Assembly (NCBI GenBank): GCA_964016885.1
Contig: OZ024748.1
Coordinates: 26,784,001-26,848,000, forward strand
DNA length: 64,000 nucleotides
Reading direction: 5' to 3'
Source of the DNA: Eledone cirrhosa
Taxonomy: Eukaryota
The notes below the pieces were generated by a model. That model did not search any database. It was given only the letters and a program-made list of their open reading frames with translations, and was not told the DNA's origin. Below are positions 2,779 to 62,341 of the stretch, one piece after another. Position 1 is the first letter of the stretch; each line of letters begins with the position of its first letter. A program made the position numbers and the translations under genes.

Positions 2779-3392
2779 CATGTTCACCCAATATCTAAAC
2801 TAAACATGTTCACCCAATATCTAAACTAAACAGATTCACCCAATACTTAAACTAAACATGTTCACCCAATATCTACACCAAACATGTTCACCCAATATCT
2901 AAACTAAACATGTTCACCCAATACTTAAACTAAACATGTTCACCCAATATCTAAACTAAACAGATTCACCCAATACTTAAACTAAACATGTTCACCCAAT
3001 ATCTACACCAAACATGTTCACCCAATATCTAAACTAAACAGATTCACCCAATACTTAAACTAAACATGTTCACCCAATATCTACACCAAACATGTTCACC
3101 CAATATCTAAACTAAACATGTTCACCCAATATCTACACCAAACATGTTCACCCAATATCTAAACTAAACATATTCACCCAATACTTAAACTAAACATGTT
3201 CACCCAATATCTACACCAAACATGTTCACCCAATATCTAAACTAAACAGATTCACCCAATACTTAAACTAAACATGTTCACCCAATATCTACACCAAACA
3301 TGTTCACCCAATATCTAAACTAAACATGTTCACCCAATATCTAAACTAAACACGTTTACTCAATGTCTAAACTAAATGTGTTTCCCCAATGC
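2779..3392. repeat. 26-bp minisatellite, about 23 copies
   Basis: Unit taaacatgttcacccaatatctaaac, with recurring variants cagattcacccaatactt and ctacaccaaa. Confidence 0.95.
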
Positions 3393-6099: not shown

Positions 6100-8082
6100 A
6101 TCATCATCATCATCATCGTTTAACGTCGATGTTCCACGCTTGCATGGGTTTGGACGGGAGTTTTCCCACTTGAGGCAAGAGTGGTTGCCATTGCTCGCAT
6201 AGAACTGTCTGGCGGGTTTTCTACAGCTGGATGCCCTTCCTAACACCAACCACATTTACAGTGTGGGGCTGGGAGGTTTTTACCGTGTTGCCTACACGGC
6301 CACATTACAGCGTGGACTGTGTGTTTTTTTGTCGTGACACCTACACGATCTCATTTGTTTCGGCCTGGATGTTGTGGCACCAACATAACTTTACATTGAA
6401 ATGGGCGGTGTGGATGGGGTGGGGGTGGTGGGACGGGGGTGTATTTTGTTAGAGATGCCTACTGACTGTAGAAGGTTTGACTTTGTATTTAGGTAAGGCG
6501 GGTCTTCTCTATTACTGAGTACCGCCAAAGGTCTCGGTCCAGTGACATTGTCTTGGAGAGGTGTAAGTGTGTGAGGTCGGAATTTATCAGCTCGTCCCAG
6601 GTTTTTCTGGGTCTGCCTACTCCATGGCTACCGTCTATCTTTATTGCCCTGCACTTTGTTATACAGCTGTCGTCTTTCATGCGCATCACGTGACCATACC
6701 AACGTAGCCTTCTCTCGAGTAAACAACATCTGATCCCTCTTATTTCTAATTTTTTCCTTAGTTCATTTATGCTTTGCCGTTCACGTATATTACTATTACA
6801 CATCCAGCGGAGCATGCAAGCTTCGTTCCTCTCTAGTCTGCGCATATCCTCTGCACACAATGCCCAGGTCTCACTGCCATGCAACATTGCTGTTCGTATG
6901 CAGGCATCATACAACCTGCCTTTCATTTTTAGGGAGAGCCCTTTAGCGGCTAATAGTGGTATAAGCTCTCTGAACTTTTTCCATCCAGTTCTGACTCTAG
7001 CTACTGTACTTTCAGAGCACCCTCCCCCACTGCTGATTTTGTCACCCAAGTAACGGAAGCTGTCCACTATTTCTATAGAACCCTCTGCGCAATTGAAAGA
7101 GCTAGTATTTTGTGGGCACTTGCTGCTACTTATTTCACCAGAGCACCGGCCACATGTAAAATCTATGTTCTTAGTTAACTTACCTGCGATCCCACTACAT
7201 CTTTTATGCACCCATACTTTGTATTTGGGACATAAAATGGAGTTTCTACCTACGCCTTTCCTACACACTGAGCATGGCCATTTCCCGGAAGGGACCGGCG
7301 CCTTATTTTCTTTCCTACAAACTAGAACATTAGTCTTAGCCAGGTTAATTTTAAGGCCTTTTGATTCTAGGCCGTGTCTCCATGTTTGGAATTTCTTCTC
7401 TAGCTCGGCCATTGATTCAGCTATGAGCGTTAGATCATCTGTGTATAGGAGTTCCCATGGGCAGCCAGTCTTGAACTCCACTGTTATAGCCTGAAGGGCA
7501 ATAATAAATAGTAGGAGGCTAAGAACAGAGCCCTGATGGACACCAACTTTTACGCTAAACTCTTCACTATATTCGTTGTTAATTCTAACCTTGCTGACTG
7601 TTTCTTTATACATGGCTTGTATAGCTCTCACAAGCCATTCGTCAACACCTAGTTTTCTAAGAGCCCACCAGATAATGGAATGGGGGACTCTGTCGAAGGC
7701 TTTCTCCAAGTCGACAAAAGCTAAGTATAGGGGTTTACTTTTAGCTAGGTACTTCTCCTGTAGTTGTCGTACAATGAAAAGAGCGTCTGTGGTACTTTTA
7801 CCTGACACAAACCCGAACTGCATTTCATCTAGATCAATTCTCTCTCTGATTAGTTGCGCTATTACTTTTTCCGTGACCTTCATGACCTGGTTGATTAATT
7901 TAATGCCTCTATAGTTACTCCTATCTAGGGCGTCTCCTTTACCCTTGTAACAGTTAACAATGATGCTGCTACGCCAGTCCTTCGGAACAACCCCATTCTG
8001 TATGACTTGGTTTACTATCCGGGTGACCATGGTGTGTCCCACCATTCCAGAGGCTTTCAGCATCTCAGCAACTATTTCCGAT
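6100..8082 (-). mobile_element. RTE-clade LINE, 5'-truncated (RT + 3'UTR + (GAT)n tail)
   Basis: ORF 6489-8063 encodes RT. The 3'UTR 6120-6488 is nearly identical to that of the 58.1-59.8 kb copy, and the tail reads (cat)n on the plus strand. Confidence 0.95.
6489..8063 (-). pseudogene. RTE LINE reverse transcriptase, N-terminally truncated (no endonuclease)
   Basis: Motifs NYRGIKL, QFGF, AFVDLEKAFDRV, GVHQGSVLS, LLYTDD, FRYLG, RLRWYGHV, GRPRKTW. Cys/His insertion CSVC..C..HxxC..CGRC. Confidence 0.95.
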
Positions 8083-8465
8083 AGCGTATGGTCTTCTAAA
8101 TGTTTTTAATTAAACATACAATATATTGCCAAATAGACTATACATACATTCATGTATACATCGTTATTTCAGAGCACCAATCCTAATACCTAATTTTTGC
8201 TGGACTGGCAATCGCTCTGTATAATCAGCTCCTGGTTATTACTGGAATTCTATAAGAATCCAGCTTCTATAATTTTCGGCGAAAGCAGAGGGTGCGTGGC
8301 TCTGATGAACGCCAACCAGCGTGAAACAGACTGTCAGCTTCTCTCCCTTCTTTCGCCAAAAAGAAGTAAGTGACATAGTCACTACTTTAAAACTGATAGC
8401 GAATGGTCTTCTAAATGCTTTTAATTAAACATACGGTGTATTGCCAAATATACTATACATACATA
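8080..8465 (+). mobile_element. About 315-bp ribozyme-bearing unit plus partial second copy (retrozyme- or Penelope-LTR-like)
   Basis: A ~70-bp direct repeat gatagcg(t/a)atggtcttctaaatg..ttaattaaacatac..tattgccaaata.actatacatacat starts at 8080 and 8395, with a hammerhead motif between the two copies. Confidence 0.65.
8298..8339 (+). ncRNA. Type I hammerhead ribozyme
   Basis: ggct-CTGATGA-acgc(caacca)gcgt-GAAA-cagactg-TC-agct: full core, 4-bp stem II, near-palindromic stem III, GUC cleavage triplet ending at 8335. Stem I extends to ggcgaaag(8278-8285)/ctttcgcc(8350-8357). Confidence 0.85.
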
Positions 8466-8540
8466 TACACATATATATATATATACACACACACATATAT
8501 ATATATATACACACACATATATATATATATATATATACAC

Positions 8541-8571
<31 letters not shown>

Positions 8572-8939
8572 TATATATATATACACACACACATATATAT
8601 ATATATACACACACACATATATATATATACACACACACATATATATATATACACACACACATATATATATATACACACACACACATATATATATATACAC
8701 ACACACATATATATATATACACACAGATATATATATATATACACACACACATATATATATATACACACACATATATATATATACACACACATATATATAT
8801 ATACACACACACACATATATATAACACACACATATATATATATATATACACACACACATATATATATATATATACACACACATATATATATATACACACA
8901 CACATATATATATATATATACACACACATATATATATAT

Positions 8940-8984
<45 letters not shown>

Positions 8985-9040
8985 TATATATATACACACA
9001 CATACATACATATACACATATATACATACAAAACATATAT
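8455..9040. repeat. Compound (TA)n/(CA)n microsatellite
   Basis: Direct reading. Confidence 0.95.
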
Positions 9041-22177: not shown

Positions 22178-23358
22178 ATTACTGACATTTATTTGGGAGC
22201 AAGTTTAGGGTCATTTTTAAAAATATAGTTGAGCTAGTGTTGGAATTTATTGGTTTTGGTCTGTCTGTTAATAGAATTGTTCAGTTTCTGTTTGTAAACA
22301 CTAAACTGGCTTTTGTATTTGTAACAACTCCTGTTGATTCTAGAAACTTCATTACCATATTTCTAACAAAAGTCAATTGTCTAGGATTTTCAAATAATTT
22401 TGAAGACAATAAAGAATTTGGAAGGGCTTATTAAAAAAAACTTTCTCACTTTCTGGTGTTTGGAACATAAAGGTTCTTTCATAAAATTATGATGGAAGTA
22501 TGAAAAATTTAAGACAAACAGCATAAGAGGTAACCATATTTTTAATGAAAGGCACTGCTTATGGTTTTCAAATTATTTTGAAAATAATCAAGAATTTGGA
22601 GGTATTTAGTAACATAACTAACTTTCTTATAATTAAACTGGTGTTTAGAGAACATAACATGTAATATAACTAACTTTCTTATAATTAAACTGGTGTTTAG
22701 AGAACATAACATGTACTATAACTAACTTTCTTATAATTAAACTGGTGTTTAGAGAACATAACATGTAATTTAACTAACTTTCTTATAATTAAACTGGTGT
22801 TTAGAGAACATAACATGTAATATAACTAACTTTCTTATAATTAAACTGGTGTTTAGAGAACATAACATGTAATATAACTAACTTTCTTATAATTAAACTG
22901 GTGTTTAGAGAACATAACATGTAATATAACTAACTTTCTTATAATTAAACTGGTGTTTAGAGAACATAACATGTAATATAACTAACTTTCTTATAATTAA
23001 CTGGTGTTTAGAGAACATAACATGTAATATAACTAACTTTCTTATAATTAAACTGGTGTTTAGAGAACATAACATGTAATATAACTAACTTTCTCATTAT
23101 TAAACTAGTGTTTAGAGAACATATAATTAATGATAGTAGAACTAATATCAGAGGTTTGGTACCAAAACAGTTAAATCTTTATTACTGATATTTATTAGTC
23201 AACAAGTTTAGGGTTATTTTAAAAATATAGTTGAGCTGGTGTTGAATTTTATTGGTTTTGGTCTGTCTGTTAATAGAATTGTTCAATTTCTGTTGTGTAA
23301 ACAATAAACTGTTTTTTGTATTTGTCACAACTCTTGTTGGTTCTAGAAACTTCATCAC
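22178..23358 (+). repeat. About 180-bp direct repeats (22178-22355 and 23178-23358) flanking MITE-B remnants and a 52-bp array
   Basis: tttattactga..aagtttaggg..aaaaatatagttgagct.gtgttg.atttattggttttggtctgtctgttaatagaattgttc..ttctagaaacttcat occurs twice. Confidence 0.8.
22612..23122. repeat. 52-bp minisatellite, about 9.5 copies
   Basis: Unit actttcttataattaaactggtgtttagagaacataacatgtaatataacta. Period 22621 to 22673. Confidence 0.95.
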
Positions 23359-36524: not shown

Positions 36525-37999
36525 ATAAGACTGGTTACTTCTCAGTTTGTAGTTGGTACAGATCAAATCTTTTACACACTACATTGCTAGTGAATTAGAT
36601 CTGTGTATGGTGGGGAAGGGGTACATGTGTCACTGTGTATGCCTGTATATGTGTGTTTCTGTATATGGTGTGTGGTGTGTGTATATATATGTGTGTGTGT
36701 TAATGTTCATAAACATCTGTGTGGTGTATTTTATATGTGGCACATGTGTATGTGGTTGTGTGTTGTGTATGTATGTGTGTGGTGCATATGTGTGTGTTCC
36801 TTCAGTGTGTGTGTGTGGTGTATGTGTGTGTGTGTTCCTCCTGTATATGTGTAATGTGTGTGTGCGTGTGCGTGTGTGTGTGTGTGTTTAAGAGACTTAG
36901 TAAGAGGACCACACAAGAGATAAAATAGTTACTTGTTTTCTAGTGGCTGCCTTAATATTACAAACCCCTCCACAGATTCTGGGAAGGTAGGGGCTGTGGG
37001 AGAAAGAGAGAGAGTGGTAGGGGCTGGGGTGAGGGAGACAGAGAGAGAGTGAAAGTAAATTAGAAAGGAGATAGCATGTGTTGATGGGAGTGGGTGGGGC
37101 TGTCCTACCTACATACCTATCTACCTACCTACCAGCTCTACTTTACTTCTCCCTCTCTCTCTCTCTCTCTTACAATGTGATACCCACCCCTCTATTTGGA
37201 TGCTTGACACCACCATCACCCTTTAGAACCCCTTGAAATTCTAGCTTCCCTTAGGGAATTCAACCCTGGACACACACACACACATGAAGGCCCAGAGATT
37301 TAAAACCAGTGGTTGTGTGTTGAGAGGTGGTGGTGATGGTGGTGATGTGATAGTAAGAGGGGAGGTGGTGATTTGATAGTAATAGTGGTGGTGGTGATAG
37401 TGGCTGTGGGTTCCTTGTTATGTTTATTCATTTATTATTTACATTTAAAAGAACATTTATTCTTCTGGGGACCAGGCCCCTTTTCTCTTAAGATAGAAGA
37501 GGAAAGAGACCAGCAACAAGGGTGAAATAAGTCTTCTTGAGAAGGTGATTCTTTTGACTGTACATGTCAAGGAATTTCTCCATTGCAGTGAACAGTGAAG
37601 GCCAAACTAAGCTAAACTTAAAGAAAACTATCAGCATTTCTTGAGGAATAATAATGTAAACACACCAAACAGAAAGAATATATTTACTCAGAACCATCAA
37701 GTAAGGATTGGCACCTTATATACTATCTTCTAAAGAAGAAGCACTGTAAACACACATACATCCCATAACACACACATATCACAGAATACACTCACATAAT
37801 AAACACTGTCTTTCATCTTAATCTCTGGATGTAAAACAACAATATAGAAGGGAAGACAAAGGAGTTTTTTTTTAAAAGATTTTCTGGAAACTTCCTTTCC
37901 TCTCACTGGAATTAATGATCCAGTGAGATTCTTGAATTCTGGTTTATGAATTATATAACATATACATTATCTATATAGACATACAATCTCTCGCTCTCT

Positions 38000-45860: not shown

Positions 45861-45875
45861 AATGCGGTAACCAAA

Positions 45876-47507
45876 AGGTTAAGGACAGAGACAGTGTCTT
45901 TCATTAGAAATATGGTAATGAAAGGGTTAATGACATAAGCTGTGGCTTTCATTAGAAATATGGTAATGAAAGGGTTAATGACATAAGCTGTGGCTTTCAT
46001 TAGAAATATGGTAATGAAAGGGTTAATGACATAGACAGTGTCTTTCATTAGAAATATGGTAATGAAAGGGTTAATGACAGAGACAGTCTCTTTCATTAGA
46101 AATATGGTAATGAAAGGGTTAATGACAGAGACAGTGTCTTTCATTAGAAATATGGTAATGAAAGGGTTAATGACATAGACAGTGTATTTCATTAGAAATA
46201 TGGTAATGAAAGAGTTAATGACATAGACAGTGTCTTTCATTAGAAATATGGTAATGAAAGGGTTAATGACAGAGACAGTGTCTTTCATTAGAAATATGGT
46301 AATGAAAGGGTTAATGACATAAGCTGTGGCTTTCATTAGAAATATGGTAATGAAAGGGTTAATGACAGAGACAGTCTCTTTCATTAGAAATATGGTAATG
46401 AAAGGGTTAATGACAGAGACAGTGTCTTTCATTAGAAATATGGTAATGAAAGAGTTAAGGACAGAGACAGTGTCTTTCATTAGAAATATGGTAATGAAAG
46501 GGTTAATGACAGAGACAGTGTCTTTCATTAGAAATATGGTAATGAAAGGGTTAATGACAGAGACAGTCTCTTTCATTAGAAATATGGTAATGAAAGAGTT
46601 AATGACATAGACAGTATCTTTCATTAGAAATATGGTAATGAAAGGGTTAATGACATAAGCTGTGGCTTTCATTAGAAATATGGTAATGAAAGGGTTAATG
46701 ACATAGACAGTGTCTTTCATTAGAAATATGGTAATGAAAGGGTTAATGACAGAGACAGTGTCTTTCATTAGAAATATGGTAATGAAAGGGTTAATGACAG
46801 AGACAGTGTCTTTCATTAGAAATATGGTAATGAAAGGGTTAATGACAGAGACAGTCTCTTTCATTAGAAATATGGTAATGAAAGAGTTAATGACATAGAC
46901 AGTGTCTTTCATTAGAAATATGGTAATGAAAGGGTTAATGACATAAGCTGTGGCTTTCATTAGAAATATGGTAATGAAAGGGTTAATGACATAGACAGTG
47001 TCTTTCATTAGAAATATGGTAATGAAAGGGTTAATGACATAAGCTGTGGCTTTCATTAGAAGTATGGTAATGAAAGGGTCAATTACATAGGTAGTGTCTT
47101 TTATTAGAAATATGGTAATGAAAGAGTTAATGACATAGGTAGTGTCTTTTATTAGAAATATGGTAATGAAAGAATTAAAGACATAGGCTGTGCATTTCAT
47201 TAGAAATATAGTAATAAAAGGGTTAATGACATAGAGGGTGTCTTTCATTAGAAATATGGTAATGAAAGGGTTAATGACATAGAAAGTGTCTTTCATTAAA
47301 AATATGGTAATGAAAGGGTTAATGACATAGACAGTGTCTTTCATTAAAAATATGGTAATGAAAGGGTTAATGACAAAGTGTTTTTCATTAGAAATATGGT
47401 AACAAAAAGGTTACTGACATAGTGTCTTTTATTAGAAATATGGTAATGAAAAGGTTAATAACAAAAGCTGTGGCTTTCATTAGAAATATGGTAATGAAAG
47501 GGTTAAT
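45876..47507. repeat. 48-bp minisatellite, about 34 copies, derived from MITE-B terminus
   Basis: Unit ttcattagaaatatggtaatgaaagggttaatgacatagacagtgtct matches the MITE end at 54751-54781 (ttcattagaaatatggtaataaaagggttaa). Confidence 0.95.
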
Positions 47508-57430: not shown

Positions 57431-58147
57431 ACAAAAGCCCATCAAACTATCATCTCATTAAAGAAACTCTTTAATCAACTTCCAATATTACAGGAGATGA
57501 TGGTAAACAGATAGCCAGGTTTTTCTCGTAGCCATAAATACTCTACTAAGCAGCCTGTCATCATGGTACTTCCGCTCCACCCACAATAGCAATCCCACTG
57601 AGATGTTGCTACCAGATGCCCCCACCTCTAAGAAAGATTTGGGAGGGAAACAAATATATATGTATATATAAATATACTTACATATATATATATATACACA
57701 CACACTGATTTTAGTTTAGAAGTTTTTCCATAGGTTCTTATGTAAATTAAATTCAATGCATTCAATATCAAATCTCCAGTTGTAGTTCCTGCCACCATTT
57801 CTTGACTGTCTGTCCTACTGCTGATCTCTCTTTAATAAATCTTACTCTCGTAACAGTCTTTCTCTTTTAACCCCTTTTCGTACAAACCCACCCAAAACTC
57901 CTTCTGCTTCTATAAATACAAAACCTCTTATTTTAAAGTATTTATCATTATCATCGTGGTTTTTAACTCTACTGGCATGGGATGGCTAAGACATTTATGA
58001 GGCAGTGTTCTTTGGCTGGCTGCCCTTTCAGATACCAGCCCTTTTTTTTTTTTTTTGTTGCAAGTATGATGCTCTTCACCCAGACATATTTTTGATATTG
58101 GGCATAAACAAATGACATCAGTTGTTTTGTTTTTAAGTGGTGTCAAT

Positions 58148-58601
58148 CATCATCATCATCATCATCATCAGGTTTAGCGTCCGTGTTCCACGCTTGCATG
58201 GGTTTGGACGGGGGTTTTCCCACTTGAGGCAAGAGTGGTTGTCTTGCTCGCATAGGACTGTCTGGCGGGTTTTCTACAGTTGGATGCCCTTCCTAACACG
58301 AACCACATTTACAGTGTGGGGCTGGGAGGTTTTTACCGTGTTGCCTACACGGCCACATTACAGCGTGGACTGTCTGGCGGGTTTTCTACAGCTGGATGCC
58401 CTTCCTAACACCAACCACATTTACAGTGTGGGGCTGGGAGGTTTTTACCGTGTTGCCTACACGGCCACATTTACAGCGTGGACTGTGTGTTTTTTTTGTC
58501 GTGACACCTACACGATCTCATTTGTTTCGGCCTGGATGTTGTGGGACCAACATAACTGTACATTGAAAGGGGCGGTGTGGATGGGGTGGAGGTGGTGGGA
58601 C

Positions 58602-58632
<31 letters not shown>

Positions 58633-59849
58633 GATAGAGATGCCTACTGACTGTAGTAGGTTTTTACTTTGTATTTAGGTAAGGCGGGTCTTCTCTATTA
58701 CTGAGTACCGCCAAAGGTCTCGGTCCAGTGACATTGTCTTGGAGAGGTGTAAGCGTGTGAGGTCGGAATTTATCAGCTCGTCCCATGTTTTTCTGGGTCT
58801 GCCTACTCCGTGGCTACCGTCTATCTTTATTGCCCTGCACTTTGTTATACAGCTGTCGTCTTTCATGCGCATCACGTGACCGTACCAACGTAGCCTTCTC
58901 TCGAGTAAACAACATCTGATCCCTCTTATTTCTAATTTTTTCCTTAGTTCGTTTATGCTTTGCCGTTCCCGTATATTACTATTGCACATCCAGCGGAGCA
59001 TGCAAGCTTCGTTCCTCTCTAGTCTGCGTATATCCTCTGCACACAATGCCCAGGTCTCACTGCCATGCAGCATTGCTGTTCGTATGCAGGCATCGTATAA
59101 CCTGCCTTTCATTTTTAGGGAGAACCCTCTAGCGGCTAATAGTGGTATAAGCTCTCTGAACTTTTTCCACCCAGTTCTGACTCTAGCTACTGTACTTTCA
59201 GAGCACCCTCCCCCACTGCTGATTTTGTCACCCAGGTAACGGAAGCTGTCCACTATTTCTATAGAACCCTCTGCGCAGTTGAAGGAGCTAGTATTTTGTG
59301 GGCACTTGCTGCTGCTTATTGCACCAGAGCACCGGCCACATGTAAAATCTATGTTCTTAGTTAGCTTACCTGTGATCCCACTACATCTTTTATGCACCCA
59401 TACTTTGCATTTGGGACATAAAATGGAGTTTCTACCTACGCCTTTCCTACACACTGAGCATGGCCATTTCCCAGATGGGACTGCCGCCATATTTTCTTTC
59501 CTACAAACTAGAACTTTTGTCTTAGCCAGGTTAATTTTAAGGCCTTTTGATTCTAGGCCGTGCTTCCATGTTTGGAATTTCTTCTCTAGTTCGGTCATTG
59601 ATTCAGCTATGAGCGTTAGATCATCTGCGTATAGGAGTTCCCATGGGCAGCCGGTCTTGAACTCCTCTGTTATAGCCTGAAGGGCAATAATAAATAGAAG
59701 GGGGCTGAGAACAGAGCCCTGATGGACGCCAACTTTTACGCTAAACTCTTCACTATATTCGTTGTTAATTCTAACCTTGCTGACTGTTTCTTTATACATG
59801 GCTTGTATAGCTCTCACAAGCCATTCGTCAACACCTAGTTTTCTAAGAG
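58148..59849 (-). mobile_element. RTE-clade LINE, 5'-truncated, same family as 6100-8082
   Basis: RT ORF, 3'UTR with ~117-bp tandem duplication, (GAT)n tail, and candidate TSD tgtcaat at 58141-58147 and 59875-59881. Confidence 0.95.
58675..59817 (-). pseudogene. RTE reverse transcriptase C-terminal part, open frame
   Basis: GVHQGSVLSPLLF, LLYADD, intact CxxC..CxxC..HxxC..CxxC insertion, FRYLG, RLRWYGHV. Confidence 0.95.
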
Positions 59850-60084
59850 ACCTAGTTTTCTAAGAGACCACCAATGTCAATGTAAAATAATATACAATGA
59901 CAAATACATCTATGTAATAGGCCTCTCCACAGGCTTTCCATCTACCAAAATTCACTCACAGAACATTAATCAGCCTAAGGCTATAGTCAAAAATGACTAA
60001 AGTGCTGTACAGTGGGACCAAACCTGATACTATGCGACTGCAAAGTGAACTTAAGGTTTACAGGCAATTTACTAACATTGACAC

Positions 60085-60758: not shown

Positions 60759-61061
60759 CATTAATGTTGATAGTGATAATGAGTTATGTTTGTAATTAGT
60801 AGGTAATGAGTTGTTAGAGCTTCGTATTTAATGCCTCAGTATTTGTTCCAGCTTTCTGTGTTCAAATCTCACCTAAGGTCAATTTTGCTTTTCATACTTT
60901 TGGATAAACAAAGAACCAGCCCCAGGGGCCAAGGGTGGGTTGATGGAATTGTTAAAGATTGTTAAAGATTGTTTTGAGGTATCTCTTTCAGCGCTGTACA
61001 TTCTGAGTTTAAATTTGGCCTCCTTCTGTCAGGAATTCAGTCAGGTAAATATTACCAGCAA

Positions 61062-61961
61062 ATAGAAAGATCAAATAAAACAATGCCTTTGGTCTGATCT
61101 GATGATTGGTAATAGAAAGATCAAATGAAACTATGTCTTTGGTCTGATCTGATGATTGGTAATAGAAAGACCAACTTAAACAATGTCTTTGGTCTGATCT
61201 GATGATTGGTAATAGAAAATCAAATGAAACAATGTCTTTGATCTGATCTGATGATTGGTAATAGAAAGATCAAATGAAACAATGTCTTTGGTCTGATCTG
61301 ATGATTGATAATAGAAAGATCAAATGAAACAATGTCTTTGGTTTGATCTGATGATTGGTAATAGAAAGATCAAATAAAACAATATCTTTGGTCTGATCTG
61401 ATGATTGGTAATAGAAAGATCAAATAAAACAATGTCTTTGGTCTGATCTGATGATTGGTAATAGAAAGATCAAATAAAACAATGTCTTTGGTCTGATCTG
61501 ATGATTGGTAATAGAAAGATCAAATAAAACAATGCCTTTGGTCTGATCTGATGATTGGTAATAGAAAGATCAAATAAAACAATGTCTTTGGTCTGATCTG
61601 ATGATTGGTAATAGAAAGATCAAATAAAACAATGTCTTTGGTCTGATCTGATGATTGGTAATAGAAAGATCAAATAAAACAATGTCTTTGGTCTGATCTG
61701 ATGATTGGTAATAGAAAGATCAAATAAAACAATGTCTTTGGTCTGATCTGATGATTGGTAATAGAAAGATCAAATAAAACAATGTCTTTGGTCTGATCTG
61801 ATGATTGGTAATAGAAAGATCAAATAAAACAATATCTTTGGTCTGATCTGATGATTGGTAATAGAAAGATCAACTTAAACAATGCCTTTGGTCTGATCTG
61901 ATGATTGGTAATAGAAAGATCAACTTAAACAATGCCTTTGGTCTGATCTGATGATTGGTAA
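61062..61961. repeat. 50-bp minisatellite, about 18 copies
   Basis: Unit ggtctgatctgatgattggtaatagaaagatcaaataaaacaatgtcttt. Period 61091 to 61141. Confidence 0.95.
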
Positions 61962-62341
61962 GGGAAAGACTAGAGGAAGCTGATCTGATGATTGACTGCT
62001 CTCTTTTTTTAAGTCAGAGGAGGGGGGGGGGGTATAAAGTCACAGCTGAAGATGGCCAGTCTATGTCAGCACTGAAACATGAATCTGCAGGTTGGCAGAG
62101 ATGGCCAGTCCATGTCAGCACTAAATACTGAATCTGCAAGTTGGCAGAGAATTTTTGAAAATGGTTTCTACAGTTGAATACCATGCCTAACATCATCCAC
62201 TATACAGAATGTACTGGCAGTGTTTTATTATGGCACCAGCTCTAGATTGTGGTTGTGAAATCCTCAACATAACTAAAGAGTCCTCTCTACCCTACATTTT
62301 CTCCATAATGCTATATATTTGTGTCACTATACCATTGACTG

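Follow-up and report, generated by a model that had tools for sequence, protein, structure and literature searches.

A predicted canonical type I hammerhead ribozyme of Eledone cirrhosa belongs to a non-LTR retrozyme family with a Penelope-like insertion footprint

A 64,000-nt stretch of the genome of the cephalopod Eledone cirrhosa (contig OZ024748.1; referred to here as the window, with positions counted from its first nucleotide) contains a hammerhead-like motif. Two questions are raised by this locus: which kind of ribozyme does the motif encode, and what kind of DNA carries it? The preliminary description had placed a type I hammerhead in a retrozyme or Penelope context, which is supported here; it overlooked that the motif is no rare locus but part of a mobile 315-nt repeat of high copy number, of which this is one copy, decaying neutrally. 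Our preferred explanation, to which we assign a probability of roughly 0.8, is that the window holds an old dispersed copy of a non-LTR retrozyme, and that its master RNA likely cleaves itself (most readily in dimeric form), circularises, and enters (TA)n DNA via a Penelope-like reverse transcriptase (RT) and endonuclease. The family, its size, its conserved fold, and the fixed ends and inverted pairs of its insertions are the observations behind this explanation, from which we infer self-cleavage, circularity, the form of the template, and the partner.

The predicted ribozyme, a type I hammerhead with an extended stem I, occupies positions 8278–8357 (+), as judged from coordinates, alignment to the Rfam Hammerhead_HH9 model, folding, and family comparison. 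The intact core, the 4-bp stem II, and the GUC site were found exactly where they had been described. All conserved core nucleotides (C3–A9, G12–A14, A15.1–U16.1, and H17) are present, with C3–A9 (CTGATGA) at 8302–8308. Stem II and its 6-nt loop 2 lie at 8309–8322 (arms 8309–8312/8319–8322, loop 8313–8318). They are followed at 8323–8335 by G12–A15.1 (GAAA, 8323–8326), stem III (three base pairs with a self-complementary G-A-C loop), and U16.1–C17; the GTC triplet is at 8333–8335 and the predicted cut site is between 8335 and 8336. The 3′ strand of helix I and the distal helices extend over 8336–8357, based on folds and on pair comparison with a sister family (family D, below). Loop 1 (8293–8295) and the 5′ strand of helix I (8296–8301) were placed by HH9 alignment and covariation in family D. 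GGCT and AGCT are at 8298–8301 and 8336–8339, and a distal 8-bp helix is formed by 8278–8285 and 8350–8357. Instead of the 5-nt stem I bulge (tgcgt) proposed earlier, a better register gives a helix I of six positions (8296–8301/8336–8341; five pairs and a U·U at 8297/8340), with an internal loop of 3 nt/1 nt beyond it. The bulged register is off because the sixth helix I pair covaries from G-C to U-A in family D, where pairs 8296–8341 and 8301–8336 show double-sided changes.

A strict descriptor matched once in the window, compared with 0.005 matches per shuffled window (200 block-wise dinucleotide shuffles). Recognition by covariance models, the other search suggested earlier, was only sub-threshold: on a 121-nt stretch, Hammerhead_HH9 (RF02275) scored 20.8 bits (E 0.003) against a gathering score of 52, and an Rfam scan of the window gave no match at any gathering score, HH9 and Hammerhead_1 (RF00163) included. 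HH9 is a conserved intronic motif present in single copy. The window motif resembles it in the six-pair helix I, loop 1, and a loop 2 starting with C-A-A, all of which align with the HH9 consensus; the score, however, is far under the gathering threshold. Loop 1 and loop 2 sequences are kept in family D; the tertiary contact between them is putative.

Canonical and minimal type I hammerheads have been defined by Cervera and de la Pena (2014; PMC4209133). The window motif had been described as minimal; by its sequence it is assigned to the canonical type, because helix II has 4 bp and not 7–8, no extra base separates position 9 from 10.1, and a helix III can form. The minimal-type hammerheads of Penelope-like elements share with the motifs studied here the core, a palindromic helix III region, and a U3-A8 variant (found here in families B and D and at some Penelope termini). 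However, in these hammerheads helix II has 7–8 bp, A9 is followed by an additional base, helix I is short, and helix III is vestigial or almost absent; the window motif shows none of these features. The usual G10.1-C11.1 pair at the base of stem II is absent from the window motif, which has A-U, and 7 of 31 copies of its family have U·U; G-C is present in families C and D. G-C at this place is highly conserved, not invariant, and a U·U exception has been published (PMC7229834).

The motif lies in a non-coding monomer of 315 nt (8080–8394, +), delimited by repeat spacing and by genome copies, whose 5′ end is a truncation point. A 70-nt direct repeat (8080–8149 and 8395–8464, 91% identical, spacing 315) marks the start of a second monomer, so that the insertion comprises 1.22 units. 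The unit has 38% G+C and its longest ATG frame is 45 aa; folded as a circle, it is more stable than shuffled sequences (z −5.2, 100 shuffles). The second monomer ends at 8464, at the "short" 3′ end of the family (below), and is followed at 8465–9028 by a (TA)/(CA)n microsatellite, the usual target of the family as indicated by repeat scan and comparison of insertion ends. The 5′ end adjoins an unrelated, 5′-truncated LINE (6100–8081, −; RT ORF 6492–8105, RVT_1 E 3e-30), which we take to belong to the RTE clade. Other copies of this LINE diverge from the window after 8081, and no target duplication was seen at the LINE/retrozyme junction.

The repeat, referred to as family A, is abundant. In the 3.0-Gb genome the exact core pattern gave 367 matches and an exact 32-nt pattern from the 3′ part gave 1,372, compared with none for the reversed control of either. 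There were 4,051 first-look candidates, the best 40 of which (window excepted) are 93–95% identical; most copies are 88–95% identical to the window copy. Contigs from two sequencing runs, compared with this locus, showed nothing beyond the numerous copies of the family. Whether the core is more conserved than its flanks had been suggested as a decisive check. Among 31 full copies it is, but barely (0.98–0.99 versus 0.97), and this test is unsuited to the locus because the motif belongs to a transposon family.

Non-LTR retrozymes have been established in cnidarians, mussels, amphibians, and other animals (PMC7229834; Li et al., 2026). Family A shows genomic features by which they are recognised: a non-coding unit of 170–400 nt, below 50% G+C, with one type I hammerhead; multiple copies; head-to-tail repeats; and co-existing autonomous Penelope-like elements. 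We assign the family to the non-LTR retrozymes, a kind already known from many animals. Li et al. (2026) call a copy "active" if two consecutive units have complete ribozymes; with its 1.22 units and single ribozyme, the window copy falls short of this, a limit of the copy rather than of the family as a whole. Consequently it could not release a monomer or circle alone.

Three related families (B, C, and D) were identified, B and C via weak matches to the 3′ end and D via a covariance model of family A. All four have units of about 310–320 nt (family C judged by eye, as no cut-to-cut monomer of it was found by script), with the hammerhead at the same place and a common hairpin near the 3′ end. 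Families B and C have different but paired stems where A has its own. Family B (L141–L177) is older, with about 321 first-look candidates, a U3-A8 core, an AUC cut site, and mostly a C·A mismatch at 10.1-11.1; a copy of it was not recognised by Rfam. Family C (L218–L247; 2,279 first-look candidates) has a textbook canonical hammerhead with a 6-bp helix I and G10.1-C11.1, which is matched by Rfam Hammerhead_1 (E 0.0025). With default filters, the model of family A did not detect the hammerheads of B, nor most of those in C. Family D (L248–L298; for example G000 C2 near 207.70 Mb and C6 near 28.92 Mb) is young, with a 316-nt unit, copies 97–99% identical, 1,769 exact core matches, and a U3-A8 core. 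It is the closest sister family, sharing 233 of 315 positions (74%) with the unit in the window, and it forms arrays of 6 and about 25 units.

The hammerhead fold is conserved between families. Comparing A with D, which amounts to one evolutionary contrast and not many, we found double-sided changes in 6 of 17 pairs, among them C3-G8 (U3-A8 in D) and three of the four stem II pairs (10.1-11.1 included), and no pair broken between the families. Cells expected to pair were paired in 98.3% of cases (12 A and 12 D copies), compared with 39–57% in slid controls. Between families, identity is 0.60–0.63 in the ribozyme arms versus 0.8–0.87 in the 3′ region, and every pair is kept. Compensatory pairs where sequence identity is low point to selection on the hammerhead fold in the master elements. 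In cave crickets, a satellite hammerhead has been reported to be conserved through compensatory changes (PMC2837043). Within family A by itself, covariation is weak: 3 pairs, a level reached in 28 of 500 shuffles.

It had been proposed that stem III is self-complementary, cannot close a normal loop in a monomer, and acts in a dimer. The dimer part is supported as likely; the monomer part is not, since three pairs with a G-A-C triloop are possible, weakly, at a predicted +2.1 kcal/mol. A two-strand duplex with 8 bp and a central A·A mismatch is predicted at −6.9 kcal/mol. Stem III has 3 bp in family A, 4 in D, and 6–7 in B, and its sequence differs in every family; loop 3, however, is self-complementary in all four, which supports the dimer idea. 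Family B has a perfect palindrome of 16 nt and C one of 6 nt; in D there are palindromes of 11 nt around a free central base, as well as a perfect one of 12 nt. Within D, loop 3 is self-complementary in five variants representing 47 of 51 loci (one outer-pair variant counted out). These comparisons and folding energies suggest that the palindromic stem III likely favours dimers, a mechanism reviewed for hammerheads in PMC6155905. By nearest-neighbour folding, with tertiary contacts unscored, an inactive monomer fold of the window copy is 6.2 kcal/mol below the hammerhead fold, and its double-hammerhead fold is 4.1 kcal/mol above the minimum, or about 2 per ribozyme; family medians of these gaps are 8.0 and 5.1 kcal/mol. 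The gaps count against an active ribozyme, but weakly, because each of the four families shows them and tertiary contacts are left out of the calculation.

The main competitor on this point is a ribozyme that works well as a monomer, loop 1/loop 2 contacts offsetting the 3-bp stem III and the palindrome being incidental; we consider this quite possible, though not the reading we favour. Its stem III (3 bp, 4 in D, 6–7 in B) is longer than the 1–2 bp typical of dimer-dependent motifs, partial self-complementarity is common to any hairpin, and co-transcriptional cutting has been reported for single-repeat retrozyme clones, at about 0.8 per min for coral and about 0.1 per min for mussel (PMC7229834). 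However, loop bases that cannot pair in a monomer are nevertheless self-complementary in four families, and the stem III hairpin has an unfavourable predicted energy. The A-U or U·U base of stem II also speaks against it: the axolotl motif, which has U·U there, reached just 22% cleavage in 1 h when monomeric and was cleaved far better when dimeric (PMC7229834). That motif, HHR_Amex2/Rtz_353, is a close published parallel, with a weak helix II base (U·U there, A-U or U·U here), a short helix III, and better cleavage expected in dimers; it differs in having 2 bp and a tetraloop in helix III instead of 3 bp and a G-N-C triloop, and the host here is an invertebrate.

In 107 family D copies (33 loci), private mutations are in excess 3–10 nt upstream of the cut, with 19 observed where 5.4 were expected (P 4e-6, for a region picked after inspecting the data). 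They fall mostly at the loop G and C of stem III, and another hairpin loop is also hot; our guess is a DNA-palindrome hotspot. A ligation scar was rejected as the cause, and none was seen at the junction, whose bases carry 3 private changes versus about 3.4 expected.

The anatomy of family A insertions was studied in 77 loci, the best full-length, intact-core, or 3′-pattern matches and not a random sample; the window's own locus and 12 duplicates were dropped. The 3′ ends of 124 segments were at the short position in 71 cases, about 30 nt further (long) in 39, and elsewhere in 14, so that 110 segments end at one of two fixed places, while 5′ ends are scattered. The fixed ends are about 135–140 and 166–168 nt downstream of the predicted cut and not at it; the insertions continue through the predicted cut site. 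A microsatellite follows 74 of the 110 fixed ends. Among 33 head-to-head inverted pairs, 23 could be classified: 20 were long + short, 3 short + short, and none long + long (P 2e-4). The same arrangement predominates in family D, with long + short in 18 of 23 pairs of a first set (biased to one long end) and in 13 of 15 classifiable pairs of a second; subfamily variants are common to both arms of an inverted pair. Head-to-tail repeats of family A include five cut-to-cut monomers in 90 loci; insertions reach 2.25 units in this family and 6 units in D.

Penelope-like insertions are described as 5′-truncated and partly tandem, with an inverted copy next to them, a tail of 30–40 bp on one side, and (TA)n as target (Craig et al., 2021; PMC8557442). 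With their fixed 3′ ends, 5′ truncation, inverted pairs, and (TA)n targets, family A insertions carry this footprint. A 6-bp hairpin (8100–8117, +, with a second copy at 8415–8432), about 35–50 nt upstream of the short 3′ end, is kept in families A–D; a U-A pair becomes C-G in D, and the motif recurs in B and C. From the whole-unit alignment fold, in which row L154 was mis-called, the pairs of this hairpin alone were used. The hairpin is a candidate recognition signal for the reverse transcriptase.

Genome-wide, 10,597 candidate elements with RT and GIY-YIG domains were found, some with open frames of 840–1,100 aa. Neither the unit nor its 3′ region formed the terminus of a Penelope element in any of 90 GIY-YIG loci (the best Pfam matches of the 10,597), and as no sharing element was found there, the Penelope partner is deduced from the footprint. 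Weak BLAST matches of the 3′ part of the unit to Penelope loci were dismissed as TA-rich noise, and the three real matches proved to be a family A insertion (L092), a B fragment (L096), and a C fragment (L202). Long open RT and GIY-YIG frames with a CxxC linker before the endonuclease were observed in L121 (2809–5622, −) and L123 (1775–5062, +), and these elements are candidates for recently active helpers. A homologue search with a Penelope ORF gave mostly unnamed proteins, plus a few listed for bivalve-symbiont assemblies. Neptune/Nematis-type Penelope-like elements, defined by a C-terminal GIY-YIG domain and a CxxC linker, are described with the same 5′ truncation, partial tandems, inverted copy, tail, and (TA)n preference (PMC8557442), whereas the retrozyme is non-coding, and none of the 90 sampled loci has detectable sequence in common with it.

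The unit could instead be the 3′ pseudo-LTR (pLTR) of an autonomous Penelope-like element, its copies being the 5′-truncated ends. The insertion footprint would be identical, genuine Penelope elements of this genome bear hammerheads downstream of the ORF, and Li et al. (2026; bioRxiv 10.64898/2026.07.22.740005) derive retrozymes from pLTRs. We nevertheless find this origin improbable. Upstream of a full unit there is another unit or unrelated flank, with no common element body among the flanks listed; of 46 ORFs scanned in the flanks, two were GIY-YIG fragments, neither of them joined to the repeat; pLTR hammerheads here are minimal-type while that of the window is canonical; and the unit was at the terminus of none of the 90 best-matching GIY-YIG loci.

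More improbable still is a satellite spread by DNA-level mechanisms, with the ribozyme as a dead relic. One 25-unit family D array does exist, and the identity of most family A copies to the window copy (just 88–95%) would suit such a history. However, dispersed single insertions that stop at fixed 3′ positions, vary randomly at the 5′ side, and include inversions bear the mark of reverse transcription, and the fold is kept by compensatory change up to the young family D with its nearly identical copies and many exact cores. A host-domesticated ribozyme like the intronic HH9 and HH10 motifs is scarcely credible: HH9 is the best Rfam match and the core and inner stems hold none of the differences from the majority of 31 full copies, but these differences, 14 in 385 nt, are scattered and reach the distal stem I as in any decaying copy, equally intact cores are found in hundreds of other copies, and the copy lies between a LINE and a microsatellite.

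Returning to the retrozyme reading, we propose the following course of events. Tandem copies would be transcribed, and adjacent hammerheads would pair via the palindromic stem III and cut after GUC, giving 315-nt monomers that a host ligase would close. Weak stem III and competing mispairing of the core might slow cutting in a lone monomer, so that the circle persists. A GIY-YIG/RT machine could then nick TA DNA and start cDNA at two fixed internal sites near the conserved hairpin. Reading past the junction for a random distance, the cDNA would yield more-than-unit copies such as the 1.22-mer, and head-to-head long/short pairs. Inserted copies would decay neutrally; the window copy could cut a read-through transcript without releasing a circle. 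It has been proposed for animal retrozymes that tandem transcripts self-process, that host ligase closes the monomers, and that a retroelement RT copies the circle (PMC7229834). More-than-unit copies are explained by a linear multimer template as well as by a circle. In Xenopus, one of nine predicted dimers was reported to be cleaved (Li et al., 2026).

Like other animal non-LTR retrozymes (PMC7229834; Li et al., 2026), those of E. cirrhosa have tandem and dispersed copies and several families per genome. They differ in that family A consists mostly of dispersed insertions of 0.2–2 units in microsatellites, with no pLTR parent found in 90 loci. The published case for Penelope-driven mobilisation is built on shared ribozymes, co-occurrence, and pLTR homology, and Li, Clavereau and Pollet (2026) tie non-LTR retrozymes to Penelope pLTRs. 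Here the insertions themselves bear a Penelope footprint, with a near-fixed long-end/short-end rule; in the retrozyme literature consulted we found no description of such fixed internal 3′ ends, or of inverted pairs that join a long to a short end. We found no report of cephalopod retrozymes in the literature (supplements might list some), and the main text of a 2026 octopus repeat annotation (PMC13282606) does not mention ribozymes. The four related families also supply naturally occurring compensatory changes in the core, in the stems, and in the loop 3 palindrome. The single motif is ordinary, as hammerheads of several families are common in the genome; the insertion footprint and the young sister family D are of more value than the window copy.

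As a speculation that we hold only tentatively, the families may form a long-lived clade of at least four 316-nt circular-RNA parasites without a pLTR parent of their own, which recruit a Penelope-type enzyme via the common 3′ hairpin. Stem III might then be a dimer-gated switch, allowing cutting in multimers and remaining quiet in the circle, and each head-to-head insertion might represent a pair of cDNAs whose starting points on a single circle were about 30 nt apart. If so, family D would be a compact, still-mobile substrate that exposes the mechanism of Penelope integration.

Several minor observations were made. In the flanks of L004–L090 and L120–L211, at least six other hammerhead families were seen, mostly minimal-type with a palindromic stem III; some of them lie downstream of Penelope ORFs and include U3-A8 variants and a U·U stem II base. 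The window LINE has a PHD-like Cys-rich stretch after the RT, is head-to-head with the retrozyme with a 2-nt overlap at the junction, and has a second copy near 58100–59900. A weak second match to the family A model at 37086–37163 (16.2 bits, E 0.018) is possibly a decayed hammerhead. Minisatellites of high unit identity are present in the window at 45866–47507 (48-nt unit), 61061–61969 (50), 22609–23123 (52), and 2779–3390 (26).
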